Below are positions 25,408-62,818 of a DNA stretch of 64,000 bases, piece after piece. Within the stretch, counting starts at the first letter, position 1. The number at the start of each line of letters is the position of its first letter. A model generated the notes under the pieces. It saw only the letters and a program-made list of their open reading frames with translations, was not told the origin of the DNA and made no database searches. Source of the DNA: a bacterium (lineage in GTDB: Bacteria > Patescibacteriota > Patescibacteriia > JBDRHN01); the NCBI GenBank assembly GCA_043816765.1, contig JBDRHN010000023.1, positions 17,353 through 81,352 on the forward strand, read 5' to 3'. The position numbers and the translations under genes were made by a program.

Positions 25408-25802
25408 ATATGAAATGCTTTGAATAATAATGGCGCATTGCGAAGATAAAAGGCTGGTTTGCTGGTGCTAACCGTTCAATGTCATTTTAACATTCTTACA
25501 ATGAAGTCTGTCCGTATTTTTCCACGACTTCCCACGCCATTTCAAACATTGCTTTTTGAATATTCGCAAAAAACTGGCTTGTGATCATAATGCCCATTCT
25601 GTTGGGCTTTTGTGGCAGGACTATTACTACTTTGTCTTCATAAATATTTATCTCGCAATTAAATAGATAATTAATTTTTTAAATCATCATCATTATACTC
25701 CAAACACCAATGTTTGGCAAAAAATCAACACTCTTGACATATTTTTTAGTTATGTTATCCTATACATATATGCACAAGATAAACAAACTAAATACTGATA
25801 AA

Positions 25803-26342: not shown

Positions 26343-26347
26343 ATGAT

Positions 26348-31974: not shown

Positions 31975-32073
31975 CAAAAACCTGTATCCTGAACTGTCAC
32001 CGGATGGTGGCGTGGCTGGGACTCCCAGCATAGGGACGTGGTTGGGAAAAGCCCTTTTTTAGGGCGTTTTTTT
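31975..32073 (+). ncRNA. candidate small RNA (~100 nt) ending at intrinsic terminator
   Basis: no CDS; GC-rich structured core; terminator GCCCTTTTTTAGGGC + T7 at 32051-32073. Confidence 0.4.
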
Positions 32074-33444: not shown

Positions 33445-33448
33445 AGTT

Positions 33449-34687: not shown

Positions 34688-34829
34688 TTTTTTTTATATT
34701 AATTTTTTAAAAAAATATTCCGCTTAATCAAGAAACCGCTCGATCTTTTTTGAAACATATTTCGTTAATTGGACAAATTTGTCCATATACTGAAATGGTA
34801 TATTTTATTTTAAAAACATTGCCAAATTT

Positions 34830-36215: not shown

Positions 36216-36269
36216 ATTACATTTATGAGGGTTATAACAGCTATAATTGTATCATTTATGCTTGTGTTG

Positions 36270-37334
36270 TCAAGCTAATTTTACGATCCTCACAATCCCC
36301 TTTTCCACGTCAACTTCCACTTTGTCGCCGTCTTTTAAAACTTTCGTAGCGATTTTTGTTCCGATGATGCAGGGGATTTTCAGTTCGCGGGCAATTATTG
36401 CGGCGTGGCAAGTTATTCCGCCGTCGTCAGTTATGATGGCGGCGGCTTTTTTCATGCCAACAAGGTGTTCGGGGCGAGTCATTGGCGCGACTAAAATATC
36501 TCCTTTTTCCACCTTGCCGATATTTTGAGCTGTCATAATAATTTTAACTTTTCCTGTGGCTTTGCCTATGGATACCGCAATTCCGCTTATTTCATTTACG
36601 TCTCCAAAATCCAGCCTGTTGACTATATTTAAAAAATTCTTAGCCTCTTGTCCTGCGTAAATATTCGTTATCTTTCCATTTCTATAAATAAACAAGCTCG
36701 CTTTTCTTCTATTTTTTAATTCAGAAACATTAAATTTTTTCGCTAAAATATTTTTGAATTCCCCAGAACAAGAATATCGCAACAGTTCATGATCTATTCC
36801 TGTCCTTCTGCTAATTTCTTTTAAAATTTTATCAGCCAAAGCAATAAAAGCTAAAGTATACACTTTTCTTTGATCCTGCCATTTGATAAATATTTCAGTA
36901 AGCCTTGAAATCGCTTTAATTTCCGGAGTAAATTTGTATTTTCCAAACAATTTTTCTTTTTCCCGTTTATGTTTTTCTAAAATTTTATTTTGCTTATGTT
37001 TAAATATTCTTTTTATTTCGTCTTCCATTTCTTTAAAGCTATATTCTTTGTGCCCGACATAACTTGATTTTATCCATGAATATTTTATCAAATGCGATTC
37101 CGCCAAAATAGCCAAATCTTTTTTCTTGCTAAGAAATTTTTTTAAACTCCCATTCTTGAATCCCGATTTTTTTATTTTAACCGCGATTTTTCTTAAATCA
37201 TCATCCTCTTGGTTTATAAATGACGGATCAATCGGCGCGCTTAAAACGGAAAATATTTTGTGATAATTTTTTATTTTATTTTCTTCGCAATATTTCTTGG
37301 TCAAAAAATCAAATCTTTTATCAGCGTAAAACAT
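36270..37334 (-). CDS. paralogous swivel (phosphohistidine) domain protein with unknown N-terminal domain
   Basis: DDGGITCHAAIIARELKIPCIIG; C-terminal ~150 aa collinear with 33449..34687. Confidence 0.75.
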   Translation of the reverse strand: MFYADKRFDFLTKKYCEENKIKNYHKIFSVLSAPIDPSFINQEDDDLRKIAVKIKKSGFKNGSLKKFLSKKKDLAILAESHLIKYSWIKSSYVGHKEYSFKEMEDEIKRIFKHKQNKILEKHKREKEKLFGKYKFTPEIKAISRLTEIFIKWQDQRKVYTLAFIALADKILKEISRRTGIDHELLRYSCSGEFKNILAKKFNVSELKNRRKASLFIYRNGKITNIYAGQEAKNFLNIVNRLDFGDVNEISGIAVSIGKATGKVKIIMTAQNIGKVEKGDILVAPMTRPEHLVGMKKAAAIITDDGGITCHAAIIARELKIPCIIGTKIATKVLKDGDKVEVDVEKGIVRIVKLA

Positions 37335-37571: not shown

Positions 37572-38783
37572 CTATTCCAAAAATCCAAACAAATACAAAG
37601 GCATCTGTTTGCCGCCGGAAATTAAAATATCGTCTTTAACTAAATAAGAATTTTTGACCTCTTTTATTTGCTTACCCTTTTTGCCGGCTCCGCCGATCTC
37701 TAATGTATATCCATCGCAGATAATATCACCTTGCTTAGAAAAAAATACATTATATCCGGCATTCATCAGATGGCTTACGACAAACAACTCCCTGGTTTGT
37801 CCAAGATCAATCGGTTTGCCGATTGAATTATTGATTGCGCAAAACAAGTTCGTATTATTCAGATAAACTTTTTCTGTATTTCTAATCAAGGCATGTCCTT
37901 GTTTGTTTATTAACAAAAAACGCAATAGTCCGCTTTCTCTCAACATTTCAATATAGTCAGCAATGGTTGTGTGGTCTTTGCCTAAACTTTTAGACAAATT
38001 ATTGACATTTAAACTTCCCGGCTTGCTGGTGGCGAAAAAATAAATAATTTTCCTAAAAACGTCCAGATTATTTGTTTTCAATGAATAAAAAGAGCTGATA
38101 TCCTCAAAAACTGTTTTATTTATAATGCCAAGCAAGGCGTCTTTATAGTCATCATAATTTTCTAACTCCATAAAAATAGGATAATAACCCTGCTTATAAT
38201 ACTCTTTTAAATAACCGATTAATTTTGAAATGTCTGATAATTCTTTTGATATTTTAGAGCCGTCATTGATAATATTTTTTAAAGTAAAAACAGGAAATTC
38301 TTTTTTTAGTTTAACCTCAAGAAATTCCCGGAAAGAAAAGCCGCTCATATATTTTAAATTTGCCCTGCGAGATAAATCATATCTGCCCTTGACAAGATCA
38401 AGACTGGAACTGCCCGAAAAAATAATTTTCATTTTCGGATAAGAATCATAAATATTTTTTAGTTCTTGATTCCAATTTTTATAACGATGAATTTCATCAA
38501 TGCAAATAATTTCGCCGTTATATTCTTTGTGAAATCTGTCGGCTAAATCAATCAAACTATTTTCGGAAAAATAAAGATTGTCGGCAGACACATAAATACC
38601 TTTATCTGTTTTTTGGTATTTCTGTTTAAGGTAATTAAGCAAAAAAATGGTTTTGCCAACGCCTCGCGCGCCAACAACGCCGGTAATTCTGTTGGTTAAT
38701 TTAAAATCAGAAAAAAATTTTCTTTGATAAATAGAATCTATTGATTTTAATAATCTATGATAAGTTTCAATTAAGCTTTGCAT
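37572..38783 (-). CDS. AAA+ ATPase, COG1373/DUF4143 family (second paralog)
   Basis: Walker A GARGVGKT, Walker B ICIDEIH. Confidence 0.8.
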   Translation of the reverse strand: MQSLIETYHRLLKSIDSIYQRKFFSDFKLTNRITGVVGARGVGKTIFLLNYLKQKYQKTDKGIYVSADNLYFSENSLIDLADRFHKEYNGEIICIDEIHRYKNWNQELKNIYDSYPKMKIIFSGSSSLDLVKGRYDLSRRANLKYMSGFSFREFLEVKLKKEFPVFTLKNIINDGSKISKELSDISKLIGYLKEYYKQGYYPIFMELENYDDYKDALLGIINKTVFEDISSFYSLKTNNLDVFRKIIYFFATSKPGSLNVNNLSKSLGKDHTTIADYIEMLRESGLLRFLLINKQGHALIRNTEKVYLNNTNLFCAINNSIGKPIDLGQTRELFVVSHLMNAGYNVFFSKQGDIICDGYTLEIGGAGKKGKQIKEVKNSYLVKDDILISGGKQMPLYLFGFLE

Positions 38784-43385: not shown

Positions 43386-43471
43386 AATTTAGTAATTAGT
43401 AACTAGTAATCAGTAACTAGTAAATTCCTATCCCTTATTACTGATTACTAGTTACTAATTACTAAAACATG

Positions 43472-43545
43472 TAGCAGGAGTGGGGCTTGAACCCACGACC
43501 TTGGCGTTATGAGTGCCACGCTCTAACCAGCTGAGCTATCCTGCC
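43472..43545 (-). tRNA. tRNA-Met (anticodon CAU; Ile-lysidine not excluded)
   Basis: manual cloverleaf: acceptor GGCAGGA/TCCTGCT, D-arm GCTC/GAGC, anticodon loop CTCATAA, T-arm GTGGG-TTCAAGC-CCCAC. Confidence 0.75.
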
Positions 43546-44501: not shown

Positions 44502-46061
44502 ATGCCAAAAAAAACCAAAATACTATTTCTACTACTCCTCTGTCCTCTGCTCTTTGTGCAACCGATTTTTGCGCAAGAAAAAACGGAACAACAAAAAGAC
44601 GCGTCGGTTGAGTCTGAGGAATCTAAAGCCGAAGAAAACACTGAGGAAGAAAATCAAGAAATAGAACCCATAATAACTTCTGAGGGCGCTATTTTTGTGG
44701 AGAAAAAAATACTGTTTGACGCTTCTGATTCGGTTCTTTTGAATATTCCGGCGCAAGTCAGTTATATTTGGAAATTTGACGACGGAACTTCCGCGAACGG
44801 TAAAGAGGTTTTGCATAGTTTCAAAAAAACGGGAAAGCATAAGGTGGAACTTACAATACAACAAGGCGCGCAAATTAAAGCAGCCGAAAAAGAAATTTTT
44901 ATTTATGATAAAAAGGTTTTATTAATCACAGACAGCGACAAACAAAGCGGACTTGAATTGATTACGGAACAAGCGGCGGATAATGGGGTCTTTCTTAAAA
45001 TGATTTCTGTAACAGAAGAAGAAACCGGATTTTTAACTGAAGAAAAACTTGTCCAAATTATTAAAGAAAACAGCGAATTTATTAATACGGCGGATGTGCT
45101 GATTTTTCACACTAAAACATCTTTAGGGTTGCAATCGTTTACTCGATATTGGCAACTCGCTGAAACCAAACCTGATTTGAAAAATAAATTAGTCGTTAAA
45201 ATTAGCGATGAAAGCATGCTTGTGGCGTCAAAAATCGCGCAACAAAATTTTGATGTTATTACGCCTAATTATATTTTACTGACAAGAAAAGAGGCGTTAA
45301 ATCCTATTTTTGAAACGAAAGATTATACTAAAATCGTTGAAAATCTGAAAAGCAGAGGTATTGAATATCAAATTATTGATGAGAGAACCGAGAGATCAAG
45401 ATTTTTTATTTTATCAAACTGGATTACAAACTTTATCGCAAACGGAATTCCGGCCAATACGATTTATCTTATTTTAGCAATTCCGTTTATCACTTTTATT
45501 ATCGCTTTCGCGCGCCAAGTCGTGGGAATTTCAACTTTCGGGGTTTATACTCCCACGGTTCTCGCGCTTACTTTTTTAATCTTGGGGATATATTTTGGAT
45601 TGGGGGCTTTGCTGATTGTGGTTTTTGTAAGTTATATGCTGAGGCTGGTTTTGCAAAGAATAGAACTTTTGTATACTCCGCGTCTGAGTTTGGCTCTTTC
45701 AACCATCAGCCTTTCTCTGCTCGCCATTATTTGGTTTTTGATAAAATTTGGCAGTCCGATATCGATTCCTCTTGCGATTTTTCCTTTGATTGTTATGTCG
45801 ACAATGTCGGAAAAATTTACCGCGGCGCAGTCTGAAGAAGGTTTGCGCGGAGCTCTCTTTGGCGCTTTTCAAACCATTCTAGTTGCCGTTGCCGCTTATT
45901 ATCTGGTGATTTGGACAGCTTTTTCTAACCTTCTAATGTATCTTCCCGAGCTTATATTTGTTCCTCTTGCCGGAAATATTTTGTTGGGCAAATTTACAGG
46001 TCTGCGCTTGACGGAATATTTCAGGTTTCGCGCGCTGTTCAAGGAACATACTGAAGAATAG
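44502..46061 (+). CDS. secreted/membrane protein: signal peptide, PKD-like ectodomain, C-terminal multi-TM (7TM-like) domain
   Basis: signal peptide LLLLCPLLFVQPIFA; PKD-like YIWKFDDGTSANGKEVLHSFKKTGKHKVELTI; ~7 TM helices in C-terminal 230 aa. Confidence 0.75.
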   Translation: MPKKTKILFLLLLCPLLFVQPIFAQEKTEQQKDASVESEESKAEENTEEENQEIEPIITSEGAIFVEKKILFDASDSVLLNIPAQVSYIWKFDDGTSANGKEVLHSFKKTGKHKVELTIQQGAQIKAAEKEIFIYDKKVLLITDSDKQSGLELITEQAADNGVFLKMISVTEEETGFLTEEKLVQIIKENSEFINTADVLIFHTKTSLGLQSFTRYWQLAETKPDLKNKLVVKISDESMLVASKIAQQNFDVITPNYILLTRKEALNPIFETKDYTKIVENLKSRGIEYQIIDERTERSRFFILSNWITNFIANGIPANTIYLILAIPFITFIIAFARQVVGISTFGVYTPTVLALTFLILGIYFGLGALLIVVFVSYMLRLVLQRIELLYTPRLSLALSTISLSLLAIIWFLIKFGSPISIPLAIFPLIVMSTMSEKFTAAQSEEGLRGALFGAFQTILVAVAAYYLVIWTAFSNLLMYLPELIFVPLAGNILLGKFTGLRLTEYFRFRALFKEHTEE

Positions 46062-46064
46062 TTT

Positions 46065-46093
46065 GTAGAGACGAGGCACTGCCTCGTCTCTAC
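46065..46093. repeat. family A palindrome between 7TM gene and ATP-grasp gene
   Basis: GTAGAGACGAGGCACTGCCTCGTCTCTACA. Confidence 0.85.
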
Positions 46094-46109
46094 ATTATTT
46101 TATTAATTT

Positions 46110-48458
46110 ATGTCTTTTAGAAAAACAAAAAAAGAAATTTTAGGCATTAACGCGAGGAATTTGCTTTATATTTCCAAATATAATTCCAGAGCGGCCAAAA
46201 AATTTGCTGATGATAAAATTTATACAAAAAATTATCTGCAGTCCCGCGATATGCCCGCCGCGCGGTTGTATCAAGTTATTCGGTCTTATACTGAATTGGA
46301 TAATTTTAATCCAGAAAGTCTTCCCGGCAGTTTTGTGATAAAACCAAACAAGGGATATGGCGGCGAAGGGATTATTGTTGTTGTGGATAAAAAAAATGAT
46401 AAATACATATCAGTTGACGGCACTAAATACAGATGGGATGGCGAGCTGTATCGCCATTGCGAAAGTATCCTAAGCGGACGTTATTCAATTTCCGGATTGC
46501 ATGATCAGATTATCTTTGAAGAATATTTAATCCGTCATGATTATTTTGATAAATTCACAAGCAAGGGTCTGCCGGATGTTCGCATTATTGTTTTTAATCT
46601 GATTCCCGTGATGGCGATGCTCCGGCTTCCAACGGAAGAATCTAAAGGAAAAGCAAATGTTCATTTGGGCGGGATTGGTCTTGGTATTGATATGAAAAGC
46701 GGAAAAACAACTTATGGTGTTACGCAAAAAAGCGTTTACAAAAATGAATTTATAAAAATCTTGCCAAATGGGGATCCTACAAACAGTATAACAATCCCCT
46801 ATTGGGATGAGATATTGCTAATGTCAGCTAAAGCTCAGGCCGCGAGCAAAATTGGTTATTTGGCGGCTGATTTGGCGATTACAAAAACAGGTGTAAAAAT
46901 TTTAGAATTAAACGCGCGCGCGGGGCTGGCTCTGCAAATTGCCAACCTCTCCCCTCTTCGGGCGCGTTTGGATAAGATTGTTGATTTGAAAGTTCTTACT
47001 CCCGAGCAAGGGGTTGAGATAAGTAAAACATTATTTACCAAAACCGCTTTACCTGCAAAAAAGGATGAAAATAAAACAGAAAGTTCAAAGCAGATTATCG
47101 GACTATATGAAAAAATAGAGATTTTGAATACTAAACATAAATCTATTTTAGCAAAAATCGATCCATGGGCAAAAGAAAATATTATTGATCAAGACATGGA
47201 TATTGAAGGACAAGACAAAATAGCGACAATTAAACTTTTAAACAAAAGAGTTACTTTTCCCTTTGTGAAAAAAAAACTCGGAGACGTTAATTATAAAGTT
47301 GTTATCGCGGGAAAATATTTAACGGATTTTTTGATTGACGCTAGCATCAGCAAACCGCAAGAACGAAAGGGTAAAAGCAATGTTGAGCAGGATGAAAAAA
47401 TTGCCATCAATGTTGATAAAAAAATCTGCCAAATTGATGAGGCTGTTCATCTGTTATCGTATTTACGTCCTTTAAATTTAGACGAGGAAAAAACAGCTTT
47501 TTTTGAGCATGCTAATTACAACCCTAAATTCATTTACCGCAAAGTCGCTATTGATGTTGAGCAACTTAAAAAAGATTTAAAAAAAATCCCGACTAAATTC
47601 AAACATCCTTTGGCTCCACTTTTTGTAAATAAAATAAAAGAGGTTGATAATAAATTATCTTTGATTGAGTCGGTTGATACTCCGAAACTTCAATTTTTTT
47701 CAGAAAAGCTTTATAGCGGCGTTGATAAAAATTTATATGATCAGGCTGTTGAATATATAAAACAGAATCCTATTACCAAAGATGAGAGTAAGATTTTAAA
47801 TTTTAAGACGAGCATAAAAAAAATCGAAAAATCGTTGAAAGAAAATAAATTGCATGGCTGGAAAATAAAAATAGTTGAAGGGGTGGCTGTTGATATGCAG
47901 GTTAATAAATCGGGGACTATTTTTGTTAAAAAAGGAGCGGAATTTTCGGTCAACAGATTGGAAAGTTTGATAGCGCACGAAATTAAAACCCATATTTTTA
48001 GGTTGGAAAATGGACGTTTGCAAAAATATAGAATTTTTGAAAGGGGCACTGCTGAGTATCTGACAACGGAAGAGGGGTTATCTATTTACAACCAAAACGC
48101 TTTAGGGATTCATTTGGGAGACAAACAGATATGGCCGGCGTTAAATGTTATTGCGGTATATATGGGATCGAAAATGAGTTTTCGCGAGTTACATAATTAT
48201 TTGATGGAAAACTATTTTATCAGCGCTGAATCGGCATGGAAAACATGCGTTAAGGCGAAAAGGGGTTATACGGACACGGGAGAACATCTGGTTTTCGCCA
48301 AAGACCATATTTATTTTAAAGGTTTGATGATGGTTGAAAAATTTGTTAAAAATTATGGGAAAGAGAAGTTGAAAGATTTGTATATTGGTAAAATCGGGGT
48401 TAATGAATTGAAATATGTTAAAAATATAAAGGATTATAGGGTGAAGTATTTGCCTTGA
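46110..48458 (+). CDS. fusion protein: RimK/alpha-L-glutamate-ligase-like ATP-grasp (N) + DUF1704 (QEGLA/MATCAP-like putative metallopeptidase) (C)
   Basis: N-terminus ILGINARNLLYISKYNSRAAKKFADDKIYTK matches TIGR02291-type ATP-grasps; C-half has HEIKTH and TEEGLS (QEGLA-like) motifs. Confidence 0.65.
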   Translation: MSFRKTKKEILGINARNLLYISKYNSRAAKKFADDKIYTKNYLQSRDMPAARLYQVIRSYTELDNFNPESLPGSFVIKPNKGYGGEGIIVVVDKKNDKYISVDGTKYRWDGELYRHCESILSGRYSISGLHDQIIFEEYLIRHDYFDKFTSKGLPDVRIIVFNLIPVMAMLRLPTEESKGKANVHLGGIGLGIDMKSGKTTYGVTQKSVYKNEFIKILPNGDPTNSITIPYWDEILLMSAKAQAASKIGYLAADLAITKTGVKILELNARAGLALQIANLSPLRARLDKIVDLKVLTPEQGVEISKTLFTKTALPAKKDENKTESSKQIIGLYEKIEILNTKHKSILAKIDPWAKENIIDQDMDIEGQDKIATIKLLNKRVTFPFVKKKLGDVNYKVVIAGKYLTDFLIDASISKPQERKGKSNVEQDEKIAINVDKKICQIDEAVHLLSYLRPLNLDEEKTAFFEHANYNPKFIYRKVAIDVEQLKKDLKKIPTKFKHPLAPLFVNKIKEVDNKLSLIESVDTPKLQFFSEKLYSGVDKNLYDQAVEYIKQNPITKDESKILNFKTSIKKIEKSLKENKLHGWKIKIVEGVAVDMQVNKSGTIFVKKGAEFSVNRLESLIAHEIKTHIFRLENGRLQKYRIFERGTAEYLTTEEGLSIYNQNALGIHLGDKQIWPALNVIAVYMGSKMSFRELHNYLMENYFISAESAWKTCVKAKRGYTDTGEHLVFAKDHIYFKGLMMVEKFVKNYGKEKLKDLYIGKIGVNELKYVKNIKDYRVKYLP

Positions 48459-48511
48459 TTCTTTTTGTATAACAAGGTAATATAAACTAGGTATAAAAAG
48501 CTAAGATTATT

Positions 48512-49450
48512 ATGAAAAAAATAATTGCGATTTATTTTTCCGACCCTGAGCCAATGGGATATCCTTTTGGAAAATCTCAATATTTAGAAATATACAAAGA
48601 AATTATTAGCAAAATTGAAAGCCACGGAATTGATGTTTTTATTGTGCGAGGAGACAGCTATATTTCAGATGGGCGCTTTAAAAGGGCATGGCAATTTATA
48701 GACGGAAACTTAAAAGAATCTAAAGGAGAAATTCGCGCTGATCTTATTTTCAATAGAGATGATAAAAACACCATACCTCTTATCCATGATTGTAAAATCA
48801 TAAATAAGCCGGAATTTGATCAAATGTGTGTTGATAAAATAAAAACATTTGAAGCCTTTCCCGATATTTCTCCGAAAACCGCATATATACATTCTTATCA
48901 AGCATTTTTAGAACAAATTGGTGAATGGCAAATGGAACCTGAGGAAATGATTGTTTTGAAAAAAAATTTTGAAACAGAGGGGCGCGGTATTTTTATAGTT
49001 CCGGTTTCGAATGTAAAAAAAGAATTATACTCAGATTGGAATGATATAATAATTCAGGAATTTTTAGACAGCTCAATTGGCATTCCGAATATTACAAATG
49101 GTTTACATGATTTGCGCGTAACAGTAATTAATGGCAGGCCGATAAATTCATTTCTTCGTGTTCCAAAAGAAGGGAGTTATCTTGCAAATGTTTCTCAGGG
49201 CGGACAGGGCACATCAATTGATCTTGATAATGTTCCGAAGGATGTTATTGATCTTGTTTGTCGCATTGACGAAAAAGTAAAAAAATATTTCCCGGCAATT
49301 TATGCCGCGGATTTTATCAATTCACCTAAGGGATATAAACTTCTTGAGTTGAATTCTCGTCCGGGGGTACAGCATCCTGATTGGTCAAAAACTTATAAAA
49401 AATTTAATGATGCTATAATTGATATGCTTGCGGAAGCGATAAAAGAATAA
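48512..49450 (+). CDS. ATP-grasp ligase (RimK/GshB-like)
   Basis: HDLRVTVINGRPI, SQGGQGTSIDLD, YKLLELNSRPG ATP-grasp C-domain motifs. Confidence 0.7.
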   Translation: MKKIIAIYFSDPEPMGYPFGKSQYLEIYKEIISKIESHGIDVFIVRGDSYISDGRFKRAWQFIDGNLKESKGEIRADLIFNRDDKNTIPLIHDCKIINKPEFDQMCVDKIKTFEAFPDISPKTAYIHSYQAFLEQIGEWQMEPEEMIVLKKNFETEGRGIFIVPVSNVKKELYSDWNDIIIQEFLDSSIGIPNITNGLHDLRVTVINGRPINSFLRVPKEGSYLANVSQGGQGTSIDLDNVPKDVIDLVCRIDEKVKKYFPAIYAADFINSPKGYKLLELNSRPGVQHPDWSKTYKKFNDAIIDMLAEAIKE

Positions 49451-49462: not shown

Positions 49463-50647
49463 ATGCAACAAAAAGGAAAATTCGGACAATACGGCGGGGT
49501 GTTCTCGCCGGAAACATTGATGCCCGCTTTGGAAGAGCTTGAAGCGGCTTATTTTAATATTGTTAAAAAAGATAAAAAGTTTAATGCTGAATTAAATTAT
49601 TTATTGCAACAATACGCGGGCAGACCGACGCCGCTTTATTTTGCGGAGAATTTGTCAAAAAAATTGGGACGTAAAATTTATCTCAAACGAGAAGACTTGT
49701 TGCATGGCGGAGCGCATAAGACTAACAATGGTTTGGGGCAAGGTTTGCTTGCCAAATATATGGGAAAGAAAAGGATTATAGCGGAAACGGGGGCGGGGCA
49801 GCATGGGTTTGCCGTAGCGATGATTGGCGCGTTTTTGGGGATACAGACGGAAGTATATATGGGCGTGGAAGATATAGAAAGGCAAAGAATGAATGTTCTG
49901 CGAATGAGGATGTGCGGGGCGAAAATTAATCCGGTTGAAATTCGTCCGGGGGTTGGTTCCCTCAAAGACGCGACTAACGAGGCGATGCGCGACTGGATAA
50001 CAAATGTTCGCACTACTTATTATATAATCGGTTCAGCGGTCGGGCCTCATCCGTATCCAACTATGGTGGCGCAATTTCAGAGAGTTATCAGCAAAGAGAT
50101 AAAAAAGCAGAGCATAAAACAGATCGGTAAATTGCCTGATACTGTGATTGCTTGCGTTGGCGGAGGCAGTAACGCAATCGGCGCTTTTTATGAATTTATT
50201 AATGATAAAAAAGTAAAGTTAATAGGCGTTGAGCCTGCCGGTTTGGGTGTTAATACGACTAAAACCGGAGCGTCAATCGGCAAAGGACGAGATGGAATAT
50301 TGCACGGTTCGCTGTCTAAAGTTCTTCAAGATAAAGACGGGCAAATTAAAGAGGCGTATAGCGTTTCCGCGGGGCTTGATTATCCGGGGGTTGGTCCGCA
50401 ACATGCTCATCTCGCAAAAACAGGGCGCGCGAAATACGAGGCTGTTACCGACAAAGAGGCGTTGGACGCGTTTGAATTGTTGTCAAAGTGCGAAGGAATC
50501 ATTCCCGCGCTTGAATCGGCTCATGCTGTTGCTTATGCTGTGAAATATGCTAAAATATGTCGGAAGGATGAGGTTGTGGTGGTTAATTTGTCGGGGCGGG
50601 GAGATAAAGATATGGAACATGTGAGCTCTCTAATAGGACACAGATAA
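49463..50647 (+). CDS. trpB: tryptophan synthase beta chain
   Basis: full-length TrpB (PLP Lys region [17 protein letters not shown]). Confidence 0.96.
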
Positions 50648-50740
50648 ACACAGACTAAAGCGCAGATAAACACAGATAAAATTATAAAAAATCAGTGTTC
50701 ATCTGCGCCCGAATGGTCAGTGTTTATTTGTGTGCTATTA
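50638..50740 (+). repeat. ~100-bp CAGATAAACACAG-family repeat, copy 1 (overlaps trpB stop)
   Basis: near-identical to 51138-51240; internal imperfect palindrome GCGCAGATAAACAC...GTGTTCATCTGCGC. Confidence 0.85.
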
Positions 50741-50747
50741 TATAAAT

Positions 50748-51155
50748 ATGCAAAATTATCAACACTCAGAATTGACCAAAAAAATTATTTCCTGTTTTTA
50801 TCAAGTCTACAATACTCTCGGTTATGGGTTTTTAGAAAAGGTCTATGAAAATTCTTTAATAAAAGAGTTGAATAAAAATGGATTAAAACCAGTTCAACAA
50901 ATGCCGATTAAGGTTTATTATGAAGGTGAATTGGTTGGTGATTATTTTGCAGATATTGTTGTTGAAAATTTGGTGATATTAGAACTAAAAGCGCAGGAAC
51001 TTCTATGCCCTGAGAACGAAGCTCAGCTATTGAACTATTTAAAAGCAACGAAGTATGAGATTGGTTTATTGTTAAATTTTGGAACAAAGCCAGAGATAAG
51101 GCGAAAAATATATAGCAATAATTTAAAGAATTCAACACAGATAAACACAGACTAA
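50748..51155 (+). CDS. GxxExxY protein (predicted PD-(D/E)xK nuclease fold)
   Basis: LGYGFLEKVYENSL motif plus DIVVEN..LELK; flanked by direct repeats; start at ATG 50748. Confidence 0.75.
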   Translation: MQNYQHSELTKKIISCFYQVYNTLGYGFLEKVYENSLIKELNKNGLKPVQQMPIKVYYEGELVGDYFADIVVENLVILELKAQELLCPENEAQLLNYLKATKYEIGLLLNFGTKPEIRRKIYSNNLKNSTQINTD

Positions 51156-51240
51156 AGCGCAGATAAACACAGATAAAATTATAAAAAATCAGTGTTCATC
51201 TGCGCCCGAAGGGTCAGTGTTTATTTGTGTGCTATTTAAA
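51138..51240 (+). repeat. ~100-bp repeat, copy 2 (direct repeat of copy 1)
   Basis: approximately one mismatch over ~100 bp relative to copy 1. Confidence 0.85.
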
Positions 51241-51243
51241 GAT

Positions 51244-52041
51244 ATGTCATTGATAGATAAAAAATTCAAACCAAACCAAGGAACGCTTGCCATTGGTACT
51301 GTTCCCGGATATCCCGACATGGAAACGAGTTTTGAAATCGTTAAGGCTATTGTTTCCGGCGGGGCGGATATTTTGGAGATGTCTTCTTCTTTTTCTGATC
51401 CTATTGCTGATGGTCCGACACTGCAACAAGCGCACGCGCAAATTTTAAAACATGGCGTTACAAAAGCGCAAGTGTTTAATTTTTATAAAAAAATAAAAAA
51501 AAATTATCCTGAAATTCCAATATTTGTGATTGAGTATTCTAATATTGTTTATACCAACGGCATTGATAATTATTATAAAAAATTAAAAGAGGGCGGGGTT
51601 GATTTGCTTTTAATTCCGGATGTTCCGCTTGAGGAGCTAAAGCCCTACAGCGCGGCGGCTAAAACATACGGAATCGGCCAGTCTTATATAGCGGCGCCGA
51701 CAACGGATAATGAAAGGCTGAAAAAAATTATTCCAAATGTTAACGGTTTTATATATGTGGCAACGGTAACAGGGATTACCGGCGCGAGAAAAAATGTTGA
51801 GGATGAGACTAAAAAGCTTTTGCGAAGAATTAAAACACAGACAAAAATTCCATTGGTCGCGGGGTTTGGAATCAGTAAGCCGGAACACGTAAAAACAGCT
51901 TTGAAATCTGGCGCAGATGGGGTTGTGATCTGTTCGCAGATTATTAATATTATTAATAAAAATTTGAAAAATAAGAAGAAGATGTTGAGTGAGGTTGAGG
52001 GGTTTGTGAAGGAAATGAAAAAAGCCTGCAGTCATTACTAA
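51244..52041 (+). CDS. trpA: tryptophan synthase alpha chain
   Basis: TrpA TIM barrel; start at ATG 51244, because the ORF-track N-terminus lies in the repeat. Confidence 0.92.
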   Translation: MSLIDKKFKPNQGTLAIGTVPGYPDMETSFEIVKAIVSGGADILEMSSSFSDPIADGPTLQQAHAQILKHGVTKAQVFNFYKKIKKNYPEIPIFVIEYSNIVYTNGIDNYYKKLKEGGVDLLLIPDVPLEELKPYSAAAKTYGIGQSYIAAPTTDNERLKKIIPNVNGFIYVATVTGITGARKNVEDETKKLLRRIKTQTKIPLVAGFGISKPEHVKTALKSGADGVVICSQIINIINKNLKNKKKMLSEVEGFVKEMKKACSHY

Positions 52042-54040: not shown

Positions 54041-54045
54041 TTTGT

Positions 54046-54150
54046 TGAATAGCACACAGATGAACACTGACCCTGCGGGCGCAGATTAACACTAATTTTT
54101 TATAATTTTAAATCTGTGTTTATCTGCGCTTTAGTCTGTGTTAATCTGTG
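54046..54150 (-). repeat. ~100-bp CAGATAAACACAG-family repeat, copy 3 (inverted orientation)
   Basis: ATCTGTGTTTATCTGCGCTTTAGTCTGTGTTAATCTG is the reverse complement of copy-1 5' part. Confidence 0.8.
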
Positions 54151-54166
54151 TCCTATTTTTTTAATT

Positions 54167-54703
54167 ATGTATTTTGTAAAATTAAAAACCAAAAAAGATA
54201 CTGTTGGTTTTGCTAATCAAATAGCTAATATTTGCAACAATCAAACCCCCCAACCCCCCTTGTCAGGGGGGCTATATGTTGTTGCCCTCATTGGCGAGCT
54301 TGGGGTTGGGAAGACTTTTTTTACGAAAGCTTTGGGAAAGGCGCTTGGGGTTAAAGAAACGATTAAAAGTCCGAGTTTTAATTTGATGAAAGTTTATGAA
54401 ATACCGGGCAGACGAACCGTAGAGACGAGGCAGTGCCTCGTCTCTACACAAATCAAAACGTTAGTTCATGTTGATTGTTATCGTTTGAATAGTGCTGAGG
54501 AGTTAATTGATATTGGGCTTTTGGATTATTTTGGATATAATAATACTCTTATTGTTATTGAGTGGGCTGATAAAATAAAAAAAATCTTGCCGAAAGATGC
54601 AGTTTGGGTAAAATTTAAAATGGGAAAAGATGGGGTGAGAATGGCGGCGGTGAATTTAAAACCAATGTCATTCCAAAAAATTTTTTCCATCAATATTAGT
54701 TAA
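54167..54703 (+). CDS. tsaE: tRNA t6A biosynthesis ATPase TsaE with two in-frame palindromic insertions
   Basis: Walker A GELGVGKT; SPSFNLMKVYE...LVHVDCYRL TsaE signature interrupted by RRTVETRQCLVST (54419-54448); QTPQPPLSGG insertion at 54243-54272; start at ATG 54167. Confidence 0.78.
   Translation: MYFVKLKTKKDTVGFANQIANICNNQTPQPPLSGGLYVVALIGELGVGKTFFTKALGKALGVKETIKSPSFNLMKVYEIPGRRTVETRQCLVSTQIKTLVHVDCYRLNSAEELIDIGLLDYFGYNNTLIVIEWADKIKKILPKDAVWVKFKMGKDGVRMAAVNLKPMSFQKIFSINIS
54419..54448. repeat. family A palindrome inside tsaE (in frame)
   Basis: GTAGAGACGAGGCAGTGCCTCGTCTCTACA. Confidence 0.85.
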
Positions 54704-55939: not shown

Positions 55940-56012
55940 GCACCAATAACTCAGTGGTGAGAGTGCCACCCTTATAAGGTGGAAGTCGATGGTTCAAATC
56001 CATCTTGGTGCA
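55940..56012 (+). tRNA. tRNA-Ile (anticodon UAU)
   Basis: acceptor GCACCAA/TTGGTGC, D-arm ACTC-AGTGGTGA-GAGT, anticodon stem CCACC/GGTGG loop CTTATAA, T-arm GATGG-TTCAAAT-CCATC. Confidence 0.8.
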
Positions 56013-56093
56013 CAATATTGAACTTCTCTTTATGAAAAACGCCGAGGATTTTGGCGTTGGTTTAGATTATCTAACATTACATCCCCACTGGCA

Positions 56094-56330
56094 ATGTCAG
56101 GCAAAGCTCATTTCGGCAGTATGGCTTTAAGATTATTTATAGAAAAATATCAGCCTTATGCAACTCTGCATGGTCATATTCACGAAACGGTTGATATGTC
56201 TGGAGAATTTAAACAAAAAATCGGCGATACTTTATGTTTGGCGTCGGGCAATAATAATGTTGGCGACAATTTGACGGTGTTGGTTTTTGAGATAGATAAA
56301 ATACAGGACGCGAGAAGAATTATTGTTTAA
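56094..56330 (+). pseudogene. C-terminal fragment of a calcineurin-like metallophosphoesterase
   Basis: 78-aa ORF with ATLHGHIHETVD (GHxH) motif only; sits beside tRNA. Confidence 0.45.
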
Positions 56331-56449
56331 AAATTGTTGCTGAAATTTTGTAAGTTTGGTAGTATTGTATTAAATATTCAAAAAAATCAATAAATTAGAC
56401 GCTAACGCGCGCATTGTCTAGAGGAAAAGCAGGTTTGTGGAAACTTATT

Positions 56450-57496
56450 ATGAAAAAAGATAATCAAAAATCTCAAATTATTATTTATAAAACAGAGGAT
56501 GGGCGGACTAAAATTGATGTTCGCTTTGAGGATGAAACTGTTTGGCTTACGCAAAACACGCTGGCGGAACTTTTTCAGACTACAAAACAAAATATAAGCC
56601 AACATATAAAGAATATCTTTGAAGAGGGCGAACTTAAGCCAAATTCAGTTGTAAAGGATTTCTTGACAACTGCCGCTGACGGTAAAAATTATACAACAAA
56701 CTATTATAATTTAGATCTTATTATTTCTGTCGGCTATCGCGTTAAAAGCGGTATTGCCACAGCTTTTCGCCAGTGGGCGACCGAACATTTAAGAGAATAT
56801 ATTATAAAAGGTTTTGTATTGGATGACGAACGTTTGAAAAATCCCGATTTGCCTTTTGATTATTTTGAAAATTTAACGCGCCGTATTGCGGACATTCGCA
56901 CCTCTGAAAAAAGATTTTATAGAAAAATTACTGATATTTACGCTACCAGCGTTGATTATGATCCGACAGATGAGCAAAGCATTTTATTTTTTCAAACGGT
57001 TCAAAATAAAGTTCACTACGCCGTAACAGGAAATACCGCGGCAGAAATAATCGCAAATAGAGCCGACGGCGACAAGCCGAATGCCGGTCTTACATATTTC
57101 CGCGGGACAAAACCGACAAAAGAAGAGGCGCTGATAGCTAAAAATTATTTAAGCGAACAGGAACTTCTTGTTTTAAATAATATTGTTGAGCAGTATCTTG
57201 TATTTGCCGAAGGGCAAGCGATGCAAAGAATTCCAATGTATATGAAAGATTGGATTGATAAGCTGCATAGTTTTTTGCAGATTAATAATAAGGAAATTCT
57301 AAAAGACGCGGGAAAAATTTCGCATGATTTGGCGGTGGAAATAGCTGAAAAAAAACTTGCGGAGTATAAAAAAATTGAATCAAAAAAAATAGATGGTGAT
57401 TTTGATGTTTTTGCGAATAAGGCGATTAAGCTGGTTGGCGGGAATAAAATTTTGTCAATCTATTTTACAAACCATTTGACAAATATTTTTACATAA
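56450..57496 (+). CDS. RhuM-family (virulence-associated) protein
   Basis: IIIYKTEDGRTKIDVRFEDETVWLTQNTLAELFQ typical RhuM N-terminus. Confidence 0.7.
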   Translation: MKKDNQKSQIIIYKTEDGRTKIDVRFEDETVWLTQNTLAELFQTTKQNISQHIKNIFEEGELKPNSVVKDFLTTAADGKNYTTNYYNLDLIISVGYRVKSGIATAFRQWATEHLREYIIKGFVLDDERLKNPDLPFDYFENLTRRIADIRTSEKRFYRKITDIYATSVDYDPTDEQSILFFQTVQNKVHYAVTGNTAAEIIANRADGDKPNAGLTYFRGTKPTKEEALIAKNYLSEQELLVLNNIVEQYLVFAEGQAMQRIPMYMKDWIDKLHSFLQINNKEILKDAGKISHDLAVEIAEKKLAEYKKIESKKIDGDFDVFANKAIKLVGGNKILSIYFTNHLTNIFT

Positions 57497-57498
57497 AT

Positions 57499-57527
57499 TA
57501 TACTACCAATAAGGTAGTATTTTTTAT
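57499..57527 (+). terminator. Rho-independent terminator after RhuM gene
   Basis: ATACTACC-aat-AAGGTAGTAT + T6. Confidence 0.6.
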
Positions 57528-57537
57528 ACATTTATAT

Positions 57538-57592
57538 GGGTAGATGGAAGCCCTCGCTTCCACCGGCGCGAGCGAGGGCTCGCGCCTACCCG
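57538..57592. repeat. GC-rich palindromic element (GGGTAG...CTACCCG family)
   Basis: outer arms shared with 38903-38944 element; inner GCGAGCGAGGGCTCGCGC. Confidence 0.7.
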
Positions 57593-57617
57593 GATAAAAA
57601 TTTCTCTGCAAAAATTT

Positions 57618-58400
57618 ATGCTCTCAAAATTCATCCAACAACAACGAAAAAAGAATAATCTAACCCAAGAATTTTTGGCGACAAAGATTGGGGTGTCCCG
57701 CCCTACATATATGCAGATAGAACAAGGCGGACGGGATTTGACTGTTACAGAAGCGAAGAAGCTCGCGGATATTTTTGGCATCTCATTTGAAGATTTTGTG
57801 CAGGAAAAGGAGGAATCAACTCCTGTTGTTGAAATTCAAAAAAGCAAAATGAAAAAAATAATAAAAAAAGAAGAGATTCGCATTCACGTTCCGCAAGAAA
57901 AAGCGGAAAAATTTGAGCAAACCTTTTTGCATATTTTAGCAAAAATAGGCAGCAAACAAAATATCGGGCAAACTGTGCTTTATAAACTGCTATATTTTAT
58001 TGATTTTGATTATTATGAAAAATACGAAGAGCAATTAATTGGCGCAAAATATATTAAAAACATGTATGGACCAACTCCTCTGATGTTCGCAAAAATTATT
58101 GATAAACTTGAAAGAGAGGGAAAAATAGAAAAGATAAAAAGCAAATTTTACACGCGAGAGCAAACAAAATATCTAATAAATCCATCAAATACTCAAGATG
58201 TTTCTGCTCTCTCATCTCAGGAGCTCGCTCATATTGATTGGGAAATAGATCGGCTTGGCGGTATGACGGCGGTGCAAATTTCAGCATTGTCTCATCTTGA
58301 TACTCCTTGGGTTGTGGCCAAGGAAAAAGAACTGCTAGAGTATGAACATGTATTTTATAGGCCGGATGAAACTTCGGTAAGACAATATGAGGAACTTTGA
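57618..58400 (+). CDS. HTH (XRE-family) + DUF4065/Panacea-domain protein, putative antitoxin
   Basis: N-terminal LTQEFLATKIGVSRPTYMQIEQG HTH; LYKLLYFIDFDYY...MYGPTP Panacea-like core; 14-nt overlap with next gene. Confidence 0.6.
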   Translation: MLSKFIQQQRKKNNLTQEFLATKIGVSRPTYMQIEQGGRDLTVTEAKKLADIFGISFEDFVQEKEESTPVVEIQKSKMKKIIKKEEIRIHVPQEKAEKFEQTFLHILAKIGSKQNIGQTVLYKLLYFIDFDYYEKYEEQLIGAKYIKNMYGPTPLMFAKIIDKLEREGKIEKIKSKFYTREQTKYLINPSNTQDVSALSSQELAHIDWEIDRLGGMTAVQISALSHLDTPWVVAKEKELLEYEHVFYRPDETSVRQYEEL

Positions 58401-58728
58401 TTCTCTACAAGAATTTGAAAAGGAGTTTAAGCGACTTTTCAAAAAATACAAAACACTGCGTGATGATTTGGAAAAGTTTAAAAATGTGCTCGAAAGTTGC
58501 CCTGCTGGCGTTGGAAAAAATTTTGTTATTATTCATTCAACTGAGACTATAAAAATAGTAAAAGCGCGCATGTCATGCCGCGCGCTTTGCGATAGATCTC
58601 TCCGTGTGATATATGGATATTTTCAACGAGAAGAAAAAATTATTTTCATTGAGATATATTTCAAGGGTGAGAAAGAAAACGAAAACCGCAAAAGAATTAA
58701 AGAGTATTTAAAAAACTCGCTAAACTGA
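58387..58728 (+). CDS. RelE/ParE-superfamily toxin (putative)
   Basis: RSLRVIYGYFQREEKIIFIEIYFKG C-terminal beta-sheet pattern of RelE/ParE/YafQ-like toxins. Confidence 0.55.
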   Translation: MRNFDSLQEFEKEFKRLFKKYKTLRDDLEKFKNVLESCPAGVGKNFVIIHSTETIKIVKARMSCRALCDRSLRVIYGYFQREEKIIFIEIYFKGEKENENRKRIKEYLKNSLN

Positions 58729-59010
58729 ATTTAACCATTTCACATATTCCCTACTCCCCTCGGCTTCAATTTTAATAACGCACGGAGTTTCATAACTAAT
58801 TAGTTATTGTGTAAAAACTCGTTTTTAACGTAAAATTAAGTTTGGGGCTTTGCTAATGTTAGCATCATTACGCAGAACTAAGCAGAATTTGACGCAGAAA
58901 AACGCAGAAATTACACAGGAACTAATTAGCAAAAATGGACAAATTGTCATTCTGATTGACAATTTGTCCATTTTTCTATAAACTTAAAATATAATAAATA
59001 ATAAAAAAAT

Positions 59011-60174
59011 ATGTATATAGATAGAACACTGGAGAAAAAAATCAAACAATTAGCTAAAACTTATCCCGTTGTTGCGTTAACCGGACCCAGACAATCTGGA
59101 AAAACAACAATGGTTAAAAAAATATTTTCTGGAAAAAAATATATATCATTGGAAAATTTAGACAACAGAGCCTTTGCCAAAAATGATCCCAGGGGATTTT
59201 TAAAAACTTATAAAAATGGAGCAGTCATAGACGAAGCGCAAAATGTTCCTGAATTATTTTCTTACATTCAGGAAATTGTAGACACAAACAAAAAACCAGG
59301 GGAATTTATTTTGACGGGTTCGCAAAATTTTTTATTGATGGAAAAAATTAATCAAAGTCTGGCGGGCAGAATAGCTATAACCACCCTTCTGCCTCTTAGT
59401 ATGGAAGAAATCAGTAAAAAGACAAAAAAATTACAGCTAAATCAATTAATGCTTAATGGACAATATCCGATTATTTATGAAAAAAAAATAGACGCAAATG
59501 AATGGTATCAAAATTATATTAAAACATATATTGAAAGGGATGTCAGACTAATGAAAAATATAACTGACTTAAATTTATTCCAAAAATTCGTTAAACTATG
59601 CGCGGGGCGAATTGGACAAATTTTGAACCTAACTTCAATCGCAAATGATTGCGGGGTAAGCCATAATGTTATCAGGGGATGGATATCTATCTTGGAAGCA
59701 AGTTATATAATTTTTCTCTTGCACCCCTATTATGAAAATTTTAACAAACGTCTTATCAAAATGCCAAAAATATATTTTTATGACACAGGGCTTGCGGCAT
59801 CATTGCTTGGCATAGAAGATAAAGACAAGTTTGATATTAATCCGTTTAAAGGGGGTCTGTTTGAATCATTTGTTATTTCAGAAATTATGAAAAAAGAATA
59901 TAACAAAGGCAGAACTCCAAACATATATTTTTGGAGGGATAAAACCGGGCATGAAATAGATTGTTTATATGAAAATAAAAGAAAAAAATACGCGATAGAA
60001 ATAAAATCAGCGAAAACGATAAACAGTGATTTTTTTGACAACTTAAATTATCTGCAAAAAATTTCAAAAAATAATTTTACGAATTCTGTTTTAATTTACG
60101 GTGGAAACGAAAAACAGAACAGAAATGACGCAACTGTCTTGGGCTGGAACAACTTTGTTTCCAAATTGAATTAG
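59011..60174 (+). CDS. AAA+ ATPase, COG1373/DUF4143 family (third paralog)
   Basis: Walker A GPRQSGKT, Walker B VIDEAQ. Confidence 0.8.
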   Translation: MYIDRTLEKKIKQLAKTYPVVALTGPRQSGKTTMVKKIFSGKKYISLENLDNRAFAKNDPRGFLKTYKNGAVIDEAQNVPELFSYIQEIVDTNKKPGEFILTGSQNFLLMEKINQSLAGRIAITTLLPLSMEEISKKTKKLQLNQLMLNGQYPIIYEKKIDANEWYQNYIKTYIERDVRLMKNITDLNLFQKFVKLCAGRIGQILNLTSIANDCGVSHNVIRGWISILEASYIIFLLHPYYENFNKRLIKMPKIYFYDTGLAASLLGIEDKDKFDINPFKGGLFESFVISEIMKKEYNKGRTPNIYFWRDKTGHEIDCLYENKRKKYAIEIKSAKTINSDFFDNLNYLQKISKNNFTNSVLIYGGNEKQNRNDATVLGWNNFVSKLN

Positions 60175-62287: not shown

Positions 62288-62410
62288 CAGACTATCTAAA
62301 AATCATATCTGTGTTAATCTTCGCTTTAGTCTGTGTTCATCTGTGTCCTATTTTCAATCAACCCAAGCTAAAAAATAATTAGACGCAGATTAACACTGAC
62401 CCTTCGGGCG
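62288..62410 (-). repeat. CAGATAAACACAG-family repeat, copy 4 (rearranged, inverted)
   Basis: ATCTGTGTTAATCTTCGCTTTAGTCTGTGTTCATCTGTG ... AGACGCAGATTAACACTGACCCTTCGGGCG. Confidence 0.7.
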
Positions 62411-62818
62411 CTGAAAAACACAGATTTTAGATAAAAACTTTTTTAATTCAGGAACAATATCATCTATGTTCTCGTATTCAATCACAATATCGGTAATACC
62501 TTTTGCGGTATCTTTCAATAAAACTCCGCGCTTCACAAGAACTATTATTTTTTTATTCATTGCATAAGCAATTCCCGCTTCTATGGCGCGCCCTGTTGAC
62601 TTATGCGTGAGATCAATCAATAGCGCGTCGCATGATTTAATCTCCTGTTTTGTTATTGCCATCATTTCCAACGGATTATCAAAAAAATTTTGATAATTTT
62701 CTATATCACGAATAAAACAAAAATCATTAAATCCTGCTTGCTTTGCAATATTGCAAAGATGTTCTATCTCGGATTGGTTTTCACCGTGCTTAAAAGTGGC
62801 TGTAATAAATAACTTCAT
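62390..62818 (-). CDS. nucleoside 2-deoxyribosyltransferase-like protein
   Basis: HKSTGRAIEAGIAYAMNKKIIVL resembles the NDT-family active-site region; C-terminus overlaps the repeat. Confidence 0.5.
   Translation of the reverse strand: MKLFITATFKHGENQSEIEHLCNIAKQAGFNDFCFIRDIENYQNFFDNPLEMMAITKQEIKSCDALLIDLTHKSTGRAIEAGIAYAMNKKIIVLVKRGVLLKDTAKGITDIVIEYENIDDIVPELKKFLSKICVFQRPKGQC

Follow-up and report, generated by a model that had tools for sequence, protein, structure and literature searches.

A weak point for which the genetic code is well known is the separation of AUA, which specifies isoleucine, from AUG, which specifies methionine; the textbook bacterial answer to it is lysidine, formed by the essential enzyme TilS. 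The canonical pair of TilS and tRNA-Ile2(CAU) thus performs the task of reading AUA, and not AUG, as isoleucine. Reference sequences of TilS are found in the PDB as 1NI5, 3A2K and 1WY5. In a 2018 survey the enzyme was present in 98.2% of 1,093 bacteria and was called evolutionarily stable. Up to now the known exceptions amount to a handful of species. Bacterial tRNA-Ile(UAU) was earlier reported in 19 species, and the expression "rare cases" is still used in a 2026 preprint; tilS was counted as absent from nine species belonging to three clades, and 371 distinct TAT tDNA sequences were collected from metagenomes (Taniguchi et al. 2013, PMC3575796).

Regarding the ways in which such tRNAs are used, several systems have been described. 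In Mycoplasma mobile, tRNA-Ile2(UAU) carries an unmodified U34 together with t6A37; its anticodon is recognised by an IleRS of Arg865 type, and AUG is disfavoured by the ribosome (Taniguchi et al. 2013, PMC3575796). The tilS-less species of Bifidobacterium and Neorickettsia, which belong to independent bacterial clades, also carry a TAT tRNA gene, the use of which goes together with a eukaryote-type IleRS (IleRS2-type) gained by horizontal transfer. In Lactobacillus casei, L. plantarum, Cyanothece PCC 7424 and Ferrimonas balearica, tilS and tRNA-Ile(UAU) occur together (Taniguchi 2013, PMC3575796), so that TilS is kept beside the TAT tRNA-Ile. What is more, a suppressor of tilS deletion in Bacillus subtilis proved to be tRNA-Ile1 with a G34 to U change (PMC3919564), and in this suppressor, as in eukaryotic tRNA-Ile(PsiAPsi), AUA is read by a wobble base of U type.

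Here we analyse a stretch of 64,000 nucleotides, hereafter the window, in which a 73-nt tRNA gene with a UAU anticodon lies at 55940-56012 on the forward strand. The kind of decoding is already known, namely that of M. mobile; what is new is an example from a phylum outside that literature. In our judgement the gene is likely to encode a functional chromosomal tRNA-Ile(UAU) that is charged with isoleucine and reads AUA directly, most probably as the sole AUA decoder in place of TilS and tRNA-Ile2(CAU). It shares with M. mobile a genomically encoded UAU tRNA-Ile, an AT-rich reduced genome and an A37 suited to t6A, and the probable replacement of TilS and tRNA-Ile2(CAU) is common to both. The differences are that Mollicutes and Patescibacteria are unrelated phyla, that one species is concerned there whereas the tRNA described here is conserved over many, and that the present system is known from sequence, with the absence of tilS deduced. 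Compared with the bacteria that have both systems, tilS is probably absent here, in line with its depletion throughout the Candidate Phyla Radiation (CPR), and AUA is a major codon instead of a rare one. Compared with the canonical tRNA-Ile2, the gene has T34 and not C34; it therefore offers no substrate for TilS at that position, and the discrimination against AUG must arise elsewhere.

The window has a GC content of about 36%, and Pfam scans recovered the genes of a bacterial chromosome: the S10 ribosomal-protein operon, EF-Tu, pilins, MetK, GroES/GroEL, FtsH, two PurP-type genes, RelA/SpoT, PBP1, split PEP-utilising enzymes, EF-P, SSB, S6, TrpB/TrpA, TsaE, an EamA transporter, RNase J and PurA. 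The FtsH of the window is 100% identical to NCBI protein MFH1564435.1, from which the start of ftsH was set, and its next-best relatives are from Patescibacteria, including Falkowbacteria, Parcubacteria and entries named "Patescibacteria group". The best explanation is that the host belongs to the Patescibacteria (CPR), with Magasanikbacteria and Kuenenbacteria among its relatives.

The tRNA gene is real, under structural selection and in a chromosomal context. ARAGORN called tRNA-Ile at 55940-56013 (+) with tat at position 34, the same anticodon position as in the preliminary description, and Rfam model RF00005 matched 55940-56012 over its full length (1-71 of 71) with 75.4 bits (gathering score 29; E = 1e-14) and 0 non-standard stem pairs. 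The cloverleaf is also the minimum-free-energy fold of the 74 nt, at -26.7 kcal/mol (z = -3.15); the well-formed UAU cloverleaf that had been described at this place is thereby borne out. Of its helices, the acceptor stem reads GCACCAA/UUGGUGC and the D stem ACUC/GAGU; the anticodon stem is CCACC/GGUGG, and a variable loop of 5 nt precedes the T arm, GAUGG-UUCAAAU-CCAUC. U8, A14, G18-G19, U33, the T-loop GTTCNAATC and a discriminator, A73, are all in place as in a proper tRNA, and CCA is not encoded in the genome. The anticodon loop, read directly at 55971-55977, is C32-U33-U34-A35-U36-A37-A38, with the anticodon TAT at 55973-55975. Chance is excluded, because the window has a single copy of the exact 3' half of the tRNA where 0 are expected and because a covarying family is found in many genomes. 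Downstream, a hairpin with a T-rich tail, AACGCCGAGGATTTTGGCGTT, lies at 56038-56058 (+), 26 nt 3' of the tRNA; it came from a consensus scan that gave 1 site against 0.5 expected from shuffles, and as a pattern match it is terminator-like and may serve as a terminator.

To place this gene among its relatives, we scanned one genome per GTDB species with a pattern in which the anticodon arm was fixed and the bases of the variable loop and T stem were free. The scan returned 16 loci, every one called tRNA-Ile(tat), of which 5 are labelled Magasanikbacteria, 1 Kuenenbacteria, 5 "Patescibacteria group", 1 "bacterium" and 4 "uncultured Gammaproteobacteria". The last label is almost certainly wrong, judging from the encoded proteins, since these four loci share a gene order with the Patescibacteria loci, and the identity of their proteins with the ones encoded there is 55-84%. 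Between the window and the 16 loci the tRNA alone matches, with 85-93% identity, so the genome of the window itself is not among them. One more member turned up by chance on L111, a Patescibacteria contig of 698 kb (GCA_034520665.1) retrieved with a different aim. In this member C31-G39 is replaced by a compensatory U31-A39, and the scan pattern consequently missed it; the 16 species are thus a lower bound. The rarity of UAU isoleucine tRNAs in bacteria, asserted in the preliminary description, agrees with the "rare cases" of the literature and fails for this lineage, where a conserved family spans 16 GTDB species. When position 34 was left free, the pattern matched 91 metagenome stretches, and the 80 that were scored comprised 30 with T34, 30 with C34 and 20 with G34.

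Selection on the structure is seen in an alignment of 17 sequences, 14 of them distinct. Standard pairs fill 99.7% of the pair cells, and in 9 of the 21 stem pairs both partners have changed; the covariation score amounts to 0.350 as against a shuffled mean of 0.128, a value that none of 500 shuffles reached, and in a control with slid 3' partners pairing falls to 22-43%. The window copy has three compensated acceptor-stem pairs of its own, A3-U70, A6-U67 and A7-U66. The anticodon arm is invariant over the 17 aligned members, and the UAU anticodon is kept in 17 of 17 as well as in L111. All family members, the window copy included, accordingly have T at position 34, and the C34 of the canonical TilS substrate was not encountered in the family. 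The D arm of the family is on average nearer to those of GAU tRNAs than to those of CAU tRNAs, which can be set beside the derivation of the B. subtilis suppressor from tRNA-Ile1, but the closest individual matches are CAU tRNAs belonging to phage-like arrays.

The E. coli IleRS identity set consists of A73, A37, A38, U12-A23, C4-G69 and C29-G41. The UAU family shows no variation at A73, A37, A38 and U12-A23, and it has C4-G69 in the window and in 11 of the 14 distinct sequences; the pair 29-41 is A-U in all members as against C29-G41 in the E. coli rules, which may not transfer to the CPR. The window contains a second tRNA that bears on the matter. The preliminary description had placed a CAU tRNA near 43472-43545, and there is indeed one at 43471-43545 (-), called Met(cat) by ARAGORN and supported by Rfam with 65 bits; this tRNA and the UAU tRNA are not closely paralogous. 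Hallmarks of bacterial initiator tRNA-fMet are a 1-72 mismatch, three G-C pairs at 29-31/39-41 and A11-U24, and acceptor determinants of E. coli MetRS are G2-C71, C3-G70 and A73. The CAU tRNA has G2-C71, C3-G70, A73 and C11-G24, its anticodon stem is UGGCA/CGCCA without three G-C pairs at 29-31/39-41, and its non-Watson-Crick pairs are G1.U72 and A31.C39. An initiator role was considered and ruled out by C11-G24, by the UGGCA/CGCCA stem and by the G1.U72 wobble. Because the initiator hallmarks are missing, the tRNA is of elongator type, and under the identity rules of E. coli it is most likely an elongator tRNA-Met.

The demand for an AUA reader is considerable in this organism. In 41 Pfam-supported genes with 14,911 codons, ATT occurs at 56.4, ATA at 25.8, ATG at 18.9 and ATC at 14.4 per 1000 codons. 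ATA makes up 26.7% of the isoleucine codons overall, and 22.6% in the genes for ribosomal proteins, EF-Tu, GroEL, EF-P, SSB and S6. Since AUA is frequent, also in ribosomal-protein, EF-Tu and GroEL genes, an efficient reader of it is needed.

Whether the UAU tRNA is the only such reader depends on tilS. In the preliminary description the UAU tRNA was taken to imply loss of tilS, which does not follow by itself, as Taniguchi (2013, PMC3575796) names bacteria that have both. It is accordingly conceivable that tilS and a tRNA-Ile2(CAU) are encoded elsewhere in the genome and that the UAU tRNA is an auxiliary reader of AUA. The coexistence in L. casei, L. plantarum, Cyanothece and Ferrimonas, a "transition state" in the model of Taniguchi, speaks for this, and the part of the genome inspected is about 64 kb, taken from an 88-kb contig of a metagenome-assembled genome. 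In addition, the cultivated Saccharibacterium Southlakia epibionticum has a TilS (SEML1_0730; PF01171, E = 7e-45) directly upstream of FtsH, and two of the three Tn-seq calls given for this TilS score it as essential. From this protein it follows both that some CPR possess TilS and that Pfam detects TilS when it is present.

Against this background the searches gave the following results. No ORF with the SGGxDS PP-loop motif was found in the six frames of the 64-kb window, nor any tilS, and a scan for the motif over all fetched loci returned guanylate kinases and nothing else. The ftsH gene of the window lies at 17637-19616 (+), as identified by Pfam, and groES at 16850-17140 (-) (Cpn10, E = 9e-32). 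The region between them, 17141-17636, which is the position of tilS in Saccharibacteria, is taken up by the promoter region of the divergent groES-groEL operon, in which there is a CIRCE-like repeat, and contains neither tilS nor a remnant of it. A PF01171 gene beside ftsH was found in none of 8 CPR loci, that is, the window and seven others outside Saccharibacteria. The linkage of tilS with ftsH is not kept in the nearest CPR relatives, and synteny around ftsH yielded no deletion scar and no TilS sequence from these CPR loci. Two ORFs next to ftsH were considered and set aside: a 119-aa ORF on the plus strand upstream is an artefact opposite groES, and an ORF of 314-338 aa downstream, conserved in relatives, encodes a membrane protein and not TilS.

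A broader view is provided by Supplementary Data 1 of Meheust et al. 2019, based on 2,321 CPR and 1,198 non-CPR bacterial genomes. The TilS family fam02903 (K04075/PF01171) is listed there as "depleted", with 123 CPR genomes versus 866 others, or about 5% of CPR against about 72% of other bacteria; universal families reach about 1,985-2,138 CPR genomes in the same dataset. These counts hang on protein clustering, in which a divergent CPR TilS could fall into another family, and that for TilS refers to the CPR as a whole, not split by lineage. The word TilS has 0 whole-word occurrences in the main text of that paper, and in the literature searched we found no paper in which lysidine or tilS is treated together with Patescibacteria or CPR. 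The 123 CPR genomes with the family lend some support to an auxiliary role of the UAU tRNA, and against that role stand the depletion itself, the lack of tilS in the window and at ftsH in the 8 loci, and the combination of a streamlined genome, the 27% share of AUA among isoleucine codons and the strict conservation of the UAU tRNA, from which a second system would seem superfluous. Taken together, we regard such redundancy as rather unlikely, and we think it quite probable that this genome lacks tilS. If tilS is absent, to read the CAU tRNA at 43471-43545 as tRNA-Ile2 makes no sense.

Another explanation is that the tRNA is foreign and arrived with a phage or a genomic island, or that it is a decaying copy without a normal role in translation. 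What suggests it is the neighbourhood: directly 3' of the tRNA in the window stand accessory genes, namely those for RhuM, an HTH-Panacea protein (a Panacea-type antitoxin), a 113-aa ORF and a DUF4143 ATPase, followed by rnj. Moreover, Ile(tat) genes occur in phage-like tRNA arrays of metagenomes, and partial second copies of tRNA halves were seen at three loci (L001, L012 and L014). However, Pfam found no integrase among the ORFs flanking the tRNA, no partial tRNA copy, att-type duplication or tRNA-derived direct repeat occurs in the 64-kb window, and the family pattern has 0 matches in 2.9 million viral contigs. The neighbours in relatives are housekeeping genes: among 48 related loci, an RluD-like pseudouridine synthase was found at 22, gmk (guanylate kinase) at 16, the CCA-adding enzyme at 15, ribosomal protein L19 at 12 and a DHH phosphoesterase at 10, and the next gene after the UAU tRNA is usually tRNA-Val(gac), tRNA-Phe(gaa) or tRNA-Arg(ccg). 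The rnj gene likewise lies near the UAU tRNA at two loci (L024 and L102). Compensatory substitutions, including the three pairs specific to the window, keep all stems paired, which also speaks against this explanation. An insertion beside a resident tRNA gene accounts better for the accessory block than does carriage of the tRNA by a mobile element, and a foreign or decaying tRNA is in our view very improbable. A 78-aa ORF at 56094-56330, taken by eye for a metallophosphoesterase remnant, had neither Pfam nor tblastx support and was dropped.

The meaning of AUA was examined with 116 FtsH homologues, each less than 80% identical to the FtsH of the window. At the 14 ATA sites of ftsH the homologues have Ile in 65%, Val in 13% and Met in 1.5% of cases; in the controls, ATT sites show 61% Ile, ATC sites 57% Ile and ATG sites 45% Met, so that the residues at ATA sites are indistinguishable from those at ATT and ATC sites. 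Stop-codon usage in the window is normal, and no in-frame TGA occurs in its Pfam-supported genes. Altered codes, with UGA as the codon concerned, occur in other CPR lineages. That precedent notwithstanding, the idea that the UAU tRNA carries another amino acid, for example methionine as in mitochondria, and that AUA has changed its meaning is hardly credible, given the Ile-like ATA sites, the normal stop-codon usage without in-frame TGA and the retention of A73, A37, A38, U12-A23 and, mostly, C4-G69 by the tRNA. Because ATA sites align with isoleucine in homologues, AUA is not reassigned and, by this alignment, is isoleucine in this organism. The expectation that the UAU tRNA should read AUA directly is supported to the extent that the codon is frequent and behaves as isoleucine.

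Returning to the reading that we favour, in which tRNA-Ile(UAU) replaces TilS and tRNA-Ile2(CAU) as in M. mobile, decoding might proceed as follows. The UAU tRNA would be aminoacylated with isoleucine by an IleRS that tolerates U34, and AUA would be decoded through direct pairing of U34 with A; a GAU isoacceptor, presumably encoded elsewhere in the genome, would read AUU and AUC. The adaptation of IleRS to U34 that goes with the M. mobile type is Arg or Lys at the site of E. coli Trp905, or else an enzyme of eukaryote type; neither the window nor the fetched loci contain an IleRS gene. By analogy with M. mobile, position 37 may carry t6A. The tRNAs for ANN codons, including tRNA-Ile with A37, are expected substrates of t6A synthesis, and tsaE, a gene of t6A37 biosynthesis (Pfam TsaE, E = 3.4e-30), lies at 54116-54703 (+), two genes upstream of the UAU tRNA, to which we infer that it is functionally tied. 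Misreading of AUG may be limited by competition from tRNA-Met together with an adaptation of the ribosome or of IleRS, as in M. mobile. It is probable that U34 bears no modification; at any rate an xm5U side chain is unlikely there, given the near absence of MnmG from the CPR: that family occurs in 5 CPR versus 897 non-CPR genomes, the corresponding numbers for MnmA being 1,495 and 948 (Meheust et al. 2019). A different modification solution to avoid AUG misreading, which had been thought to be implied, is therefore not required, given that U34 of M. mobile is unmodified and MnmG is so scarce in the CPR. As a speculation, the RluD-like pseudouridine synthase next to the family at 22 of the 48 related loci could be named as a candidate modifier of U34.

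As a single gene call, the UAU tRNA is an ordinary annotation, and it is the lineage-wide pattern that is of more interest. The known exceptions to lysidine have been a handful of species, to which the window adds a clear example from the CPR, and the family suggests that AUA decoding based on UAU is lineage-wide in part of that radiation. For a sizeable share of the CPR the exception may even be the norm, because selection and conservation mark the tRNA family, AUA is a much-used codon, TilS is listed for no more than about 5% of CPR genomes, and MnmG is all but missing. In its broad form, the proposal is that tRNA-Ile(UAU) is the standard AUA decoder of a large radiation of Patescibacteria without TilS and without the MnmE/MnmG pathway at U34, and this could equally well turn out right or wrong. 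The extent of that radiation may be put at no less than the lineages of Magasanikbacteria and Kuenenbacteria type, and perhaps at most CPR. If the proposal is true, the CPR would be by far the largest bacterial group with lysidine-independent decoding of AUA, in contradiction to the near-universal lysidine in bacteria (98% in surveys of cultured genomes), and an unmodified U34 would have to be policed by an adapted IleRS and ribosome, or else a still unknown modification of U34 would be at work. If it is confirmed, claims on the universality and essentiality of TilS, as well as its use as a marker of the bac120 type and as a drug target, would need qualifying. The presence of tRNA-Ile(UAU) and that of tilS would then form a paired character for CPR phylogeny, and the CPR would offer a natural system in which U34 reads A, and not G, without a known modification.

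Between the tRNA-Ile(UAU) gene (55940-56012, +) and rnj lies an accessory block (56094-60174), apparently a small islet of defence or toxin-antitoxin genes that was inserted beside the tRNA. It opens at 56094 with a 78-aa ORF of no family, for which a by-eye reading as a phosphoesterase remnant is unsupported, and continues with RhuM (56414-57496), a HTH plus SocA/Panacea antitoxin-like protein (57618-58400), a 113-aa ORF overlapping the latter gene (58387-58728) and a DUF4143/AAA_14 ATPase (59011-60174). This ATPase gene is one of three DUF4143 members in the window. Another (34830-36215) interrupts the pieces of a PEP-utilising enzyme, which occur as separate ORFs within 32443-37334, namely PPDK_N (32443-33444) and PEP-utilising mobile domains (33449-34687 and 36270-37334), while the third (37572-38783) stands beside them.

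The whole block of tsaE, eamA, the tRNA, the accessory genes and rnj is bracketed by copies, at 54.05 kb and 62.4 kb, of a dispersed hairpin-forming repeat built of the units CAGAT[A/T/G]AACAC and GTGTT[A/C/T]ATCTG. All four copies found in the window (50630-50715, 51128-51212, 54045-54165 and 62300-62440) fall in the segment from 50 to 62.5 kb, and their RNA folds have z-scores from -5.5 to -8.8; possible identities for the repeat are a REP/MITE-like element and a terminator. Its first two copies, near-identical over about 75 nt and in direct orientation, flank a gene of the PDDEXK_3 nuclease family (Pfam PF13366; 50730-51155) that separates trpB (49463-50647) from trpA (51217-52041); gene and repeats together resemble a small cassette that was inserted into the trpBA pair and split it.

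Possible signs of integration at the tRNA occur in relatives. In three family loci (L001 1506-1542, L012 2909-2940 and L014 7712-7744), an incomplete duplicate of the 5' or 3' half of the tRNA-Ile(UAU) gene stands about 50-170 nt away from the complete gene; these duplicates look like att-type remnants of such events. The second tRNA of the window, with anticodon CAU (43471-43545, -), carries two non-Watson-Crick pairs, G1.U72 and A31.C39, in otherwise regular stems, and despite these it still reaches 65 bits by Rfam.

In the window, a CIRCE-like inverted repeat, CTGGCACTC-N9-GAGTGCTAA (17271-17299), lies between the divergent genes groES (16850-17140, -) and ftsH (17637-19616, +), and its presence there suggests that groESL would be under HrcA control. 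Downstream of ftsH, a conserved multi-pass membrane protein of about 314-338 aa, with no solid Pfam family, is encoded in four loci of relatives; its gene follows ftsH directly in L111 (7896-8840), L112 (8146-9162) and L113 (8278-9258), and two small ORFs intervene in L018 (13309-14319). In L111, a 698-kb Patescibacteria contig, the order is ftsH, the membrane protein gene and then tRNA-Ile(UAU). Elsewhere in the window, a type IV toxin-antitoxin pair of AbiEi-like (a weak match) and AbiEii proteins (25710-27136) is directly upstream of the PBP1 gene, and a DUF3800-IX RNA motif was matched at 31979-32047 (+) by Rfam (52.9 bits against a gathering score of 36.8), for whose adjoining 177-aa ORF (31344-31877, -) no Pfam family was found. 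The gene cluster at 44502-49450 encodes a 7TM-transglutaminase-associated protein that contains PKD domains, a fusion of an ATP-grasp with a MATCAP-like domain (tyrosine carboxypeptidase family) and a RimK-like ATP-grasp; it may be a system for peptide-tail ligation and trimming.

As for the distribution of Ile(tat) genes, dense arrays of 9-19 tRNA genes, including both Ile(gat) and Ile(tat), were found on metagenome contigs L031, L045, L046, L056, L057, L059, L070 and L105; these arrays are phage-like, and the tRNAs they contain are not related in sequence to the Patescibacteria tRNA-Ile(UAU) family. The family itself also occurs in four MAGs (L002, L005, L006 and L010) that serve as GTDB representatives and were deposited under the name 'uncultured Gammaproteobacteria'. 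This label is very probably wrong, since the four share gene order with Magasanikbacteria/Kuenenbacteria loci and encode proteins with 55-84% identity to those of these loci.

Among the 48 family loci (for example L096 788-1984 and L012 312-2108), the commonest neighbour of the tRNA is an RluD-like pseudouridine synthase with S4 and PseudoU_synth_2 domains (22 loci), and the CCA-adding enzyme, also among the commonest, is a neighbour in 15. The proximity of both enzymes is probably just conserved synteny; that of the pseudouridine synthase is worth recording because the anticodon of eukaryotic tRNA-Ile(UAU) contains pseudouridine.
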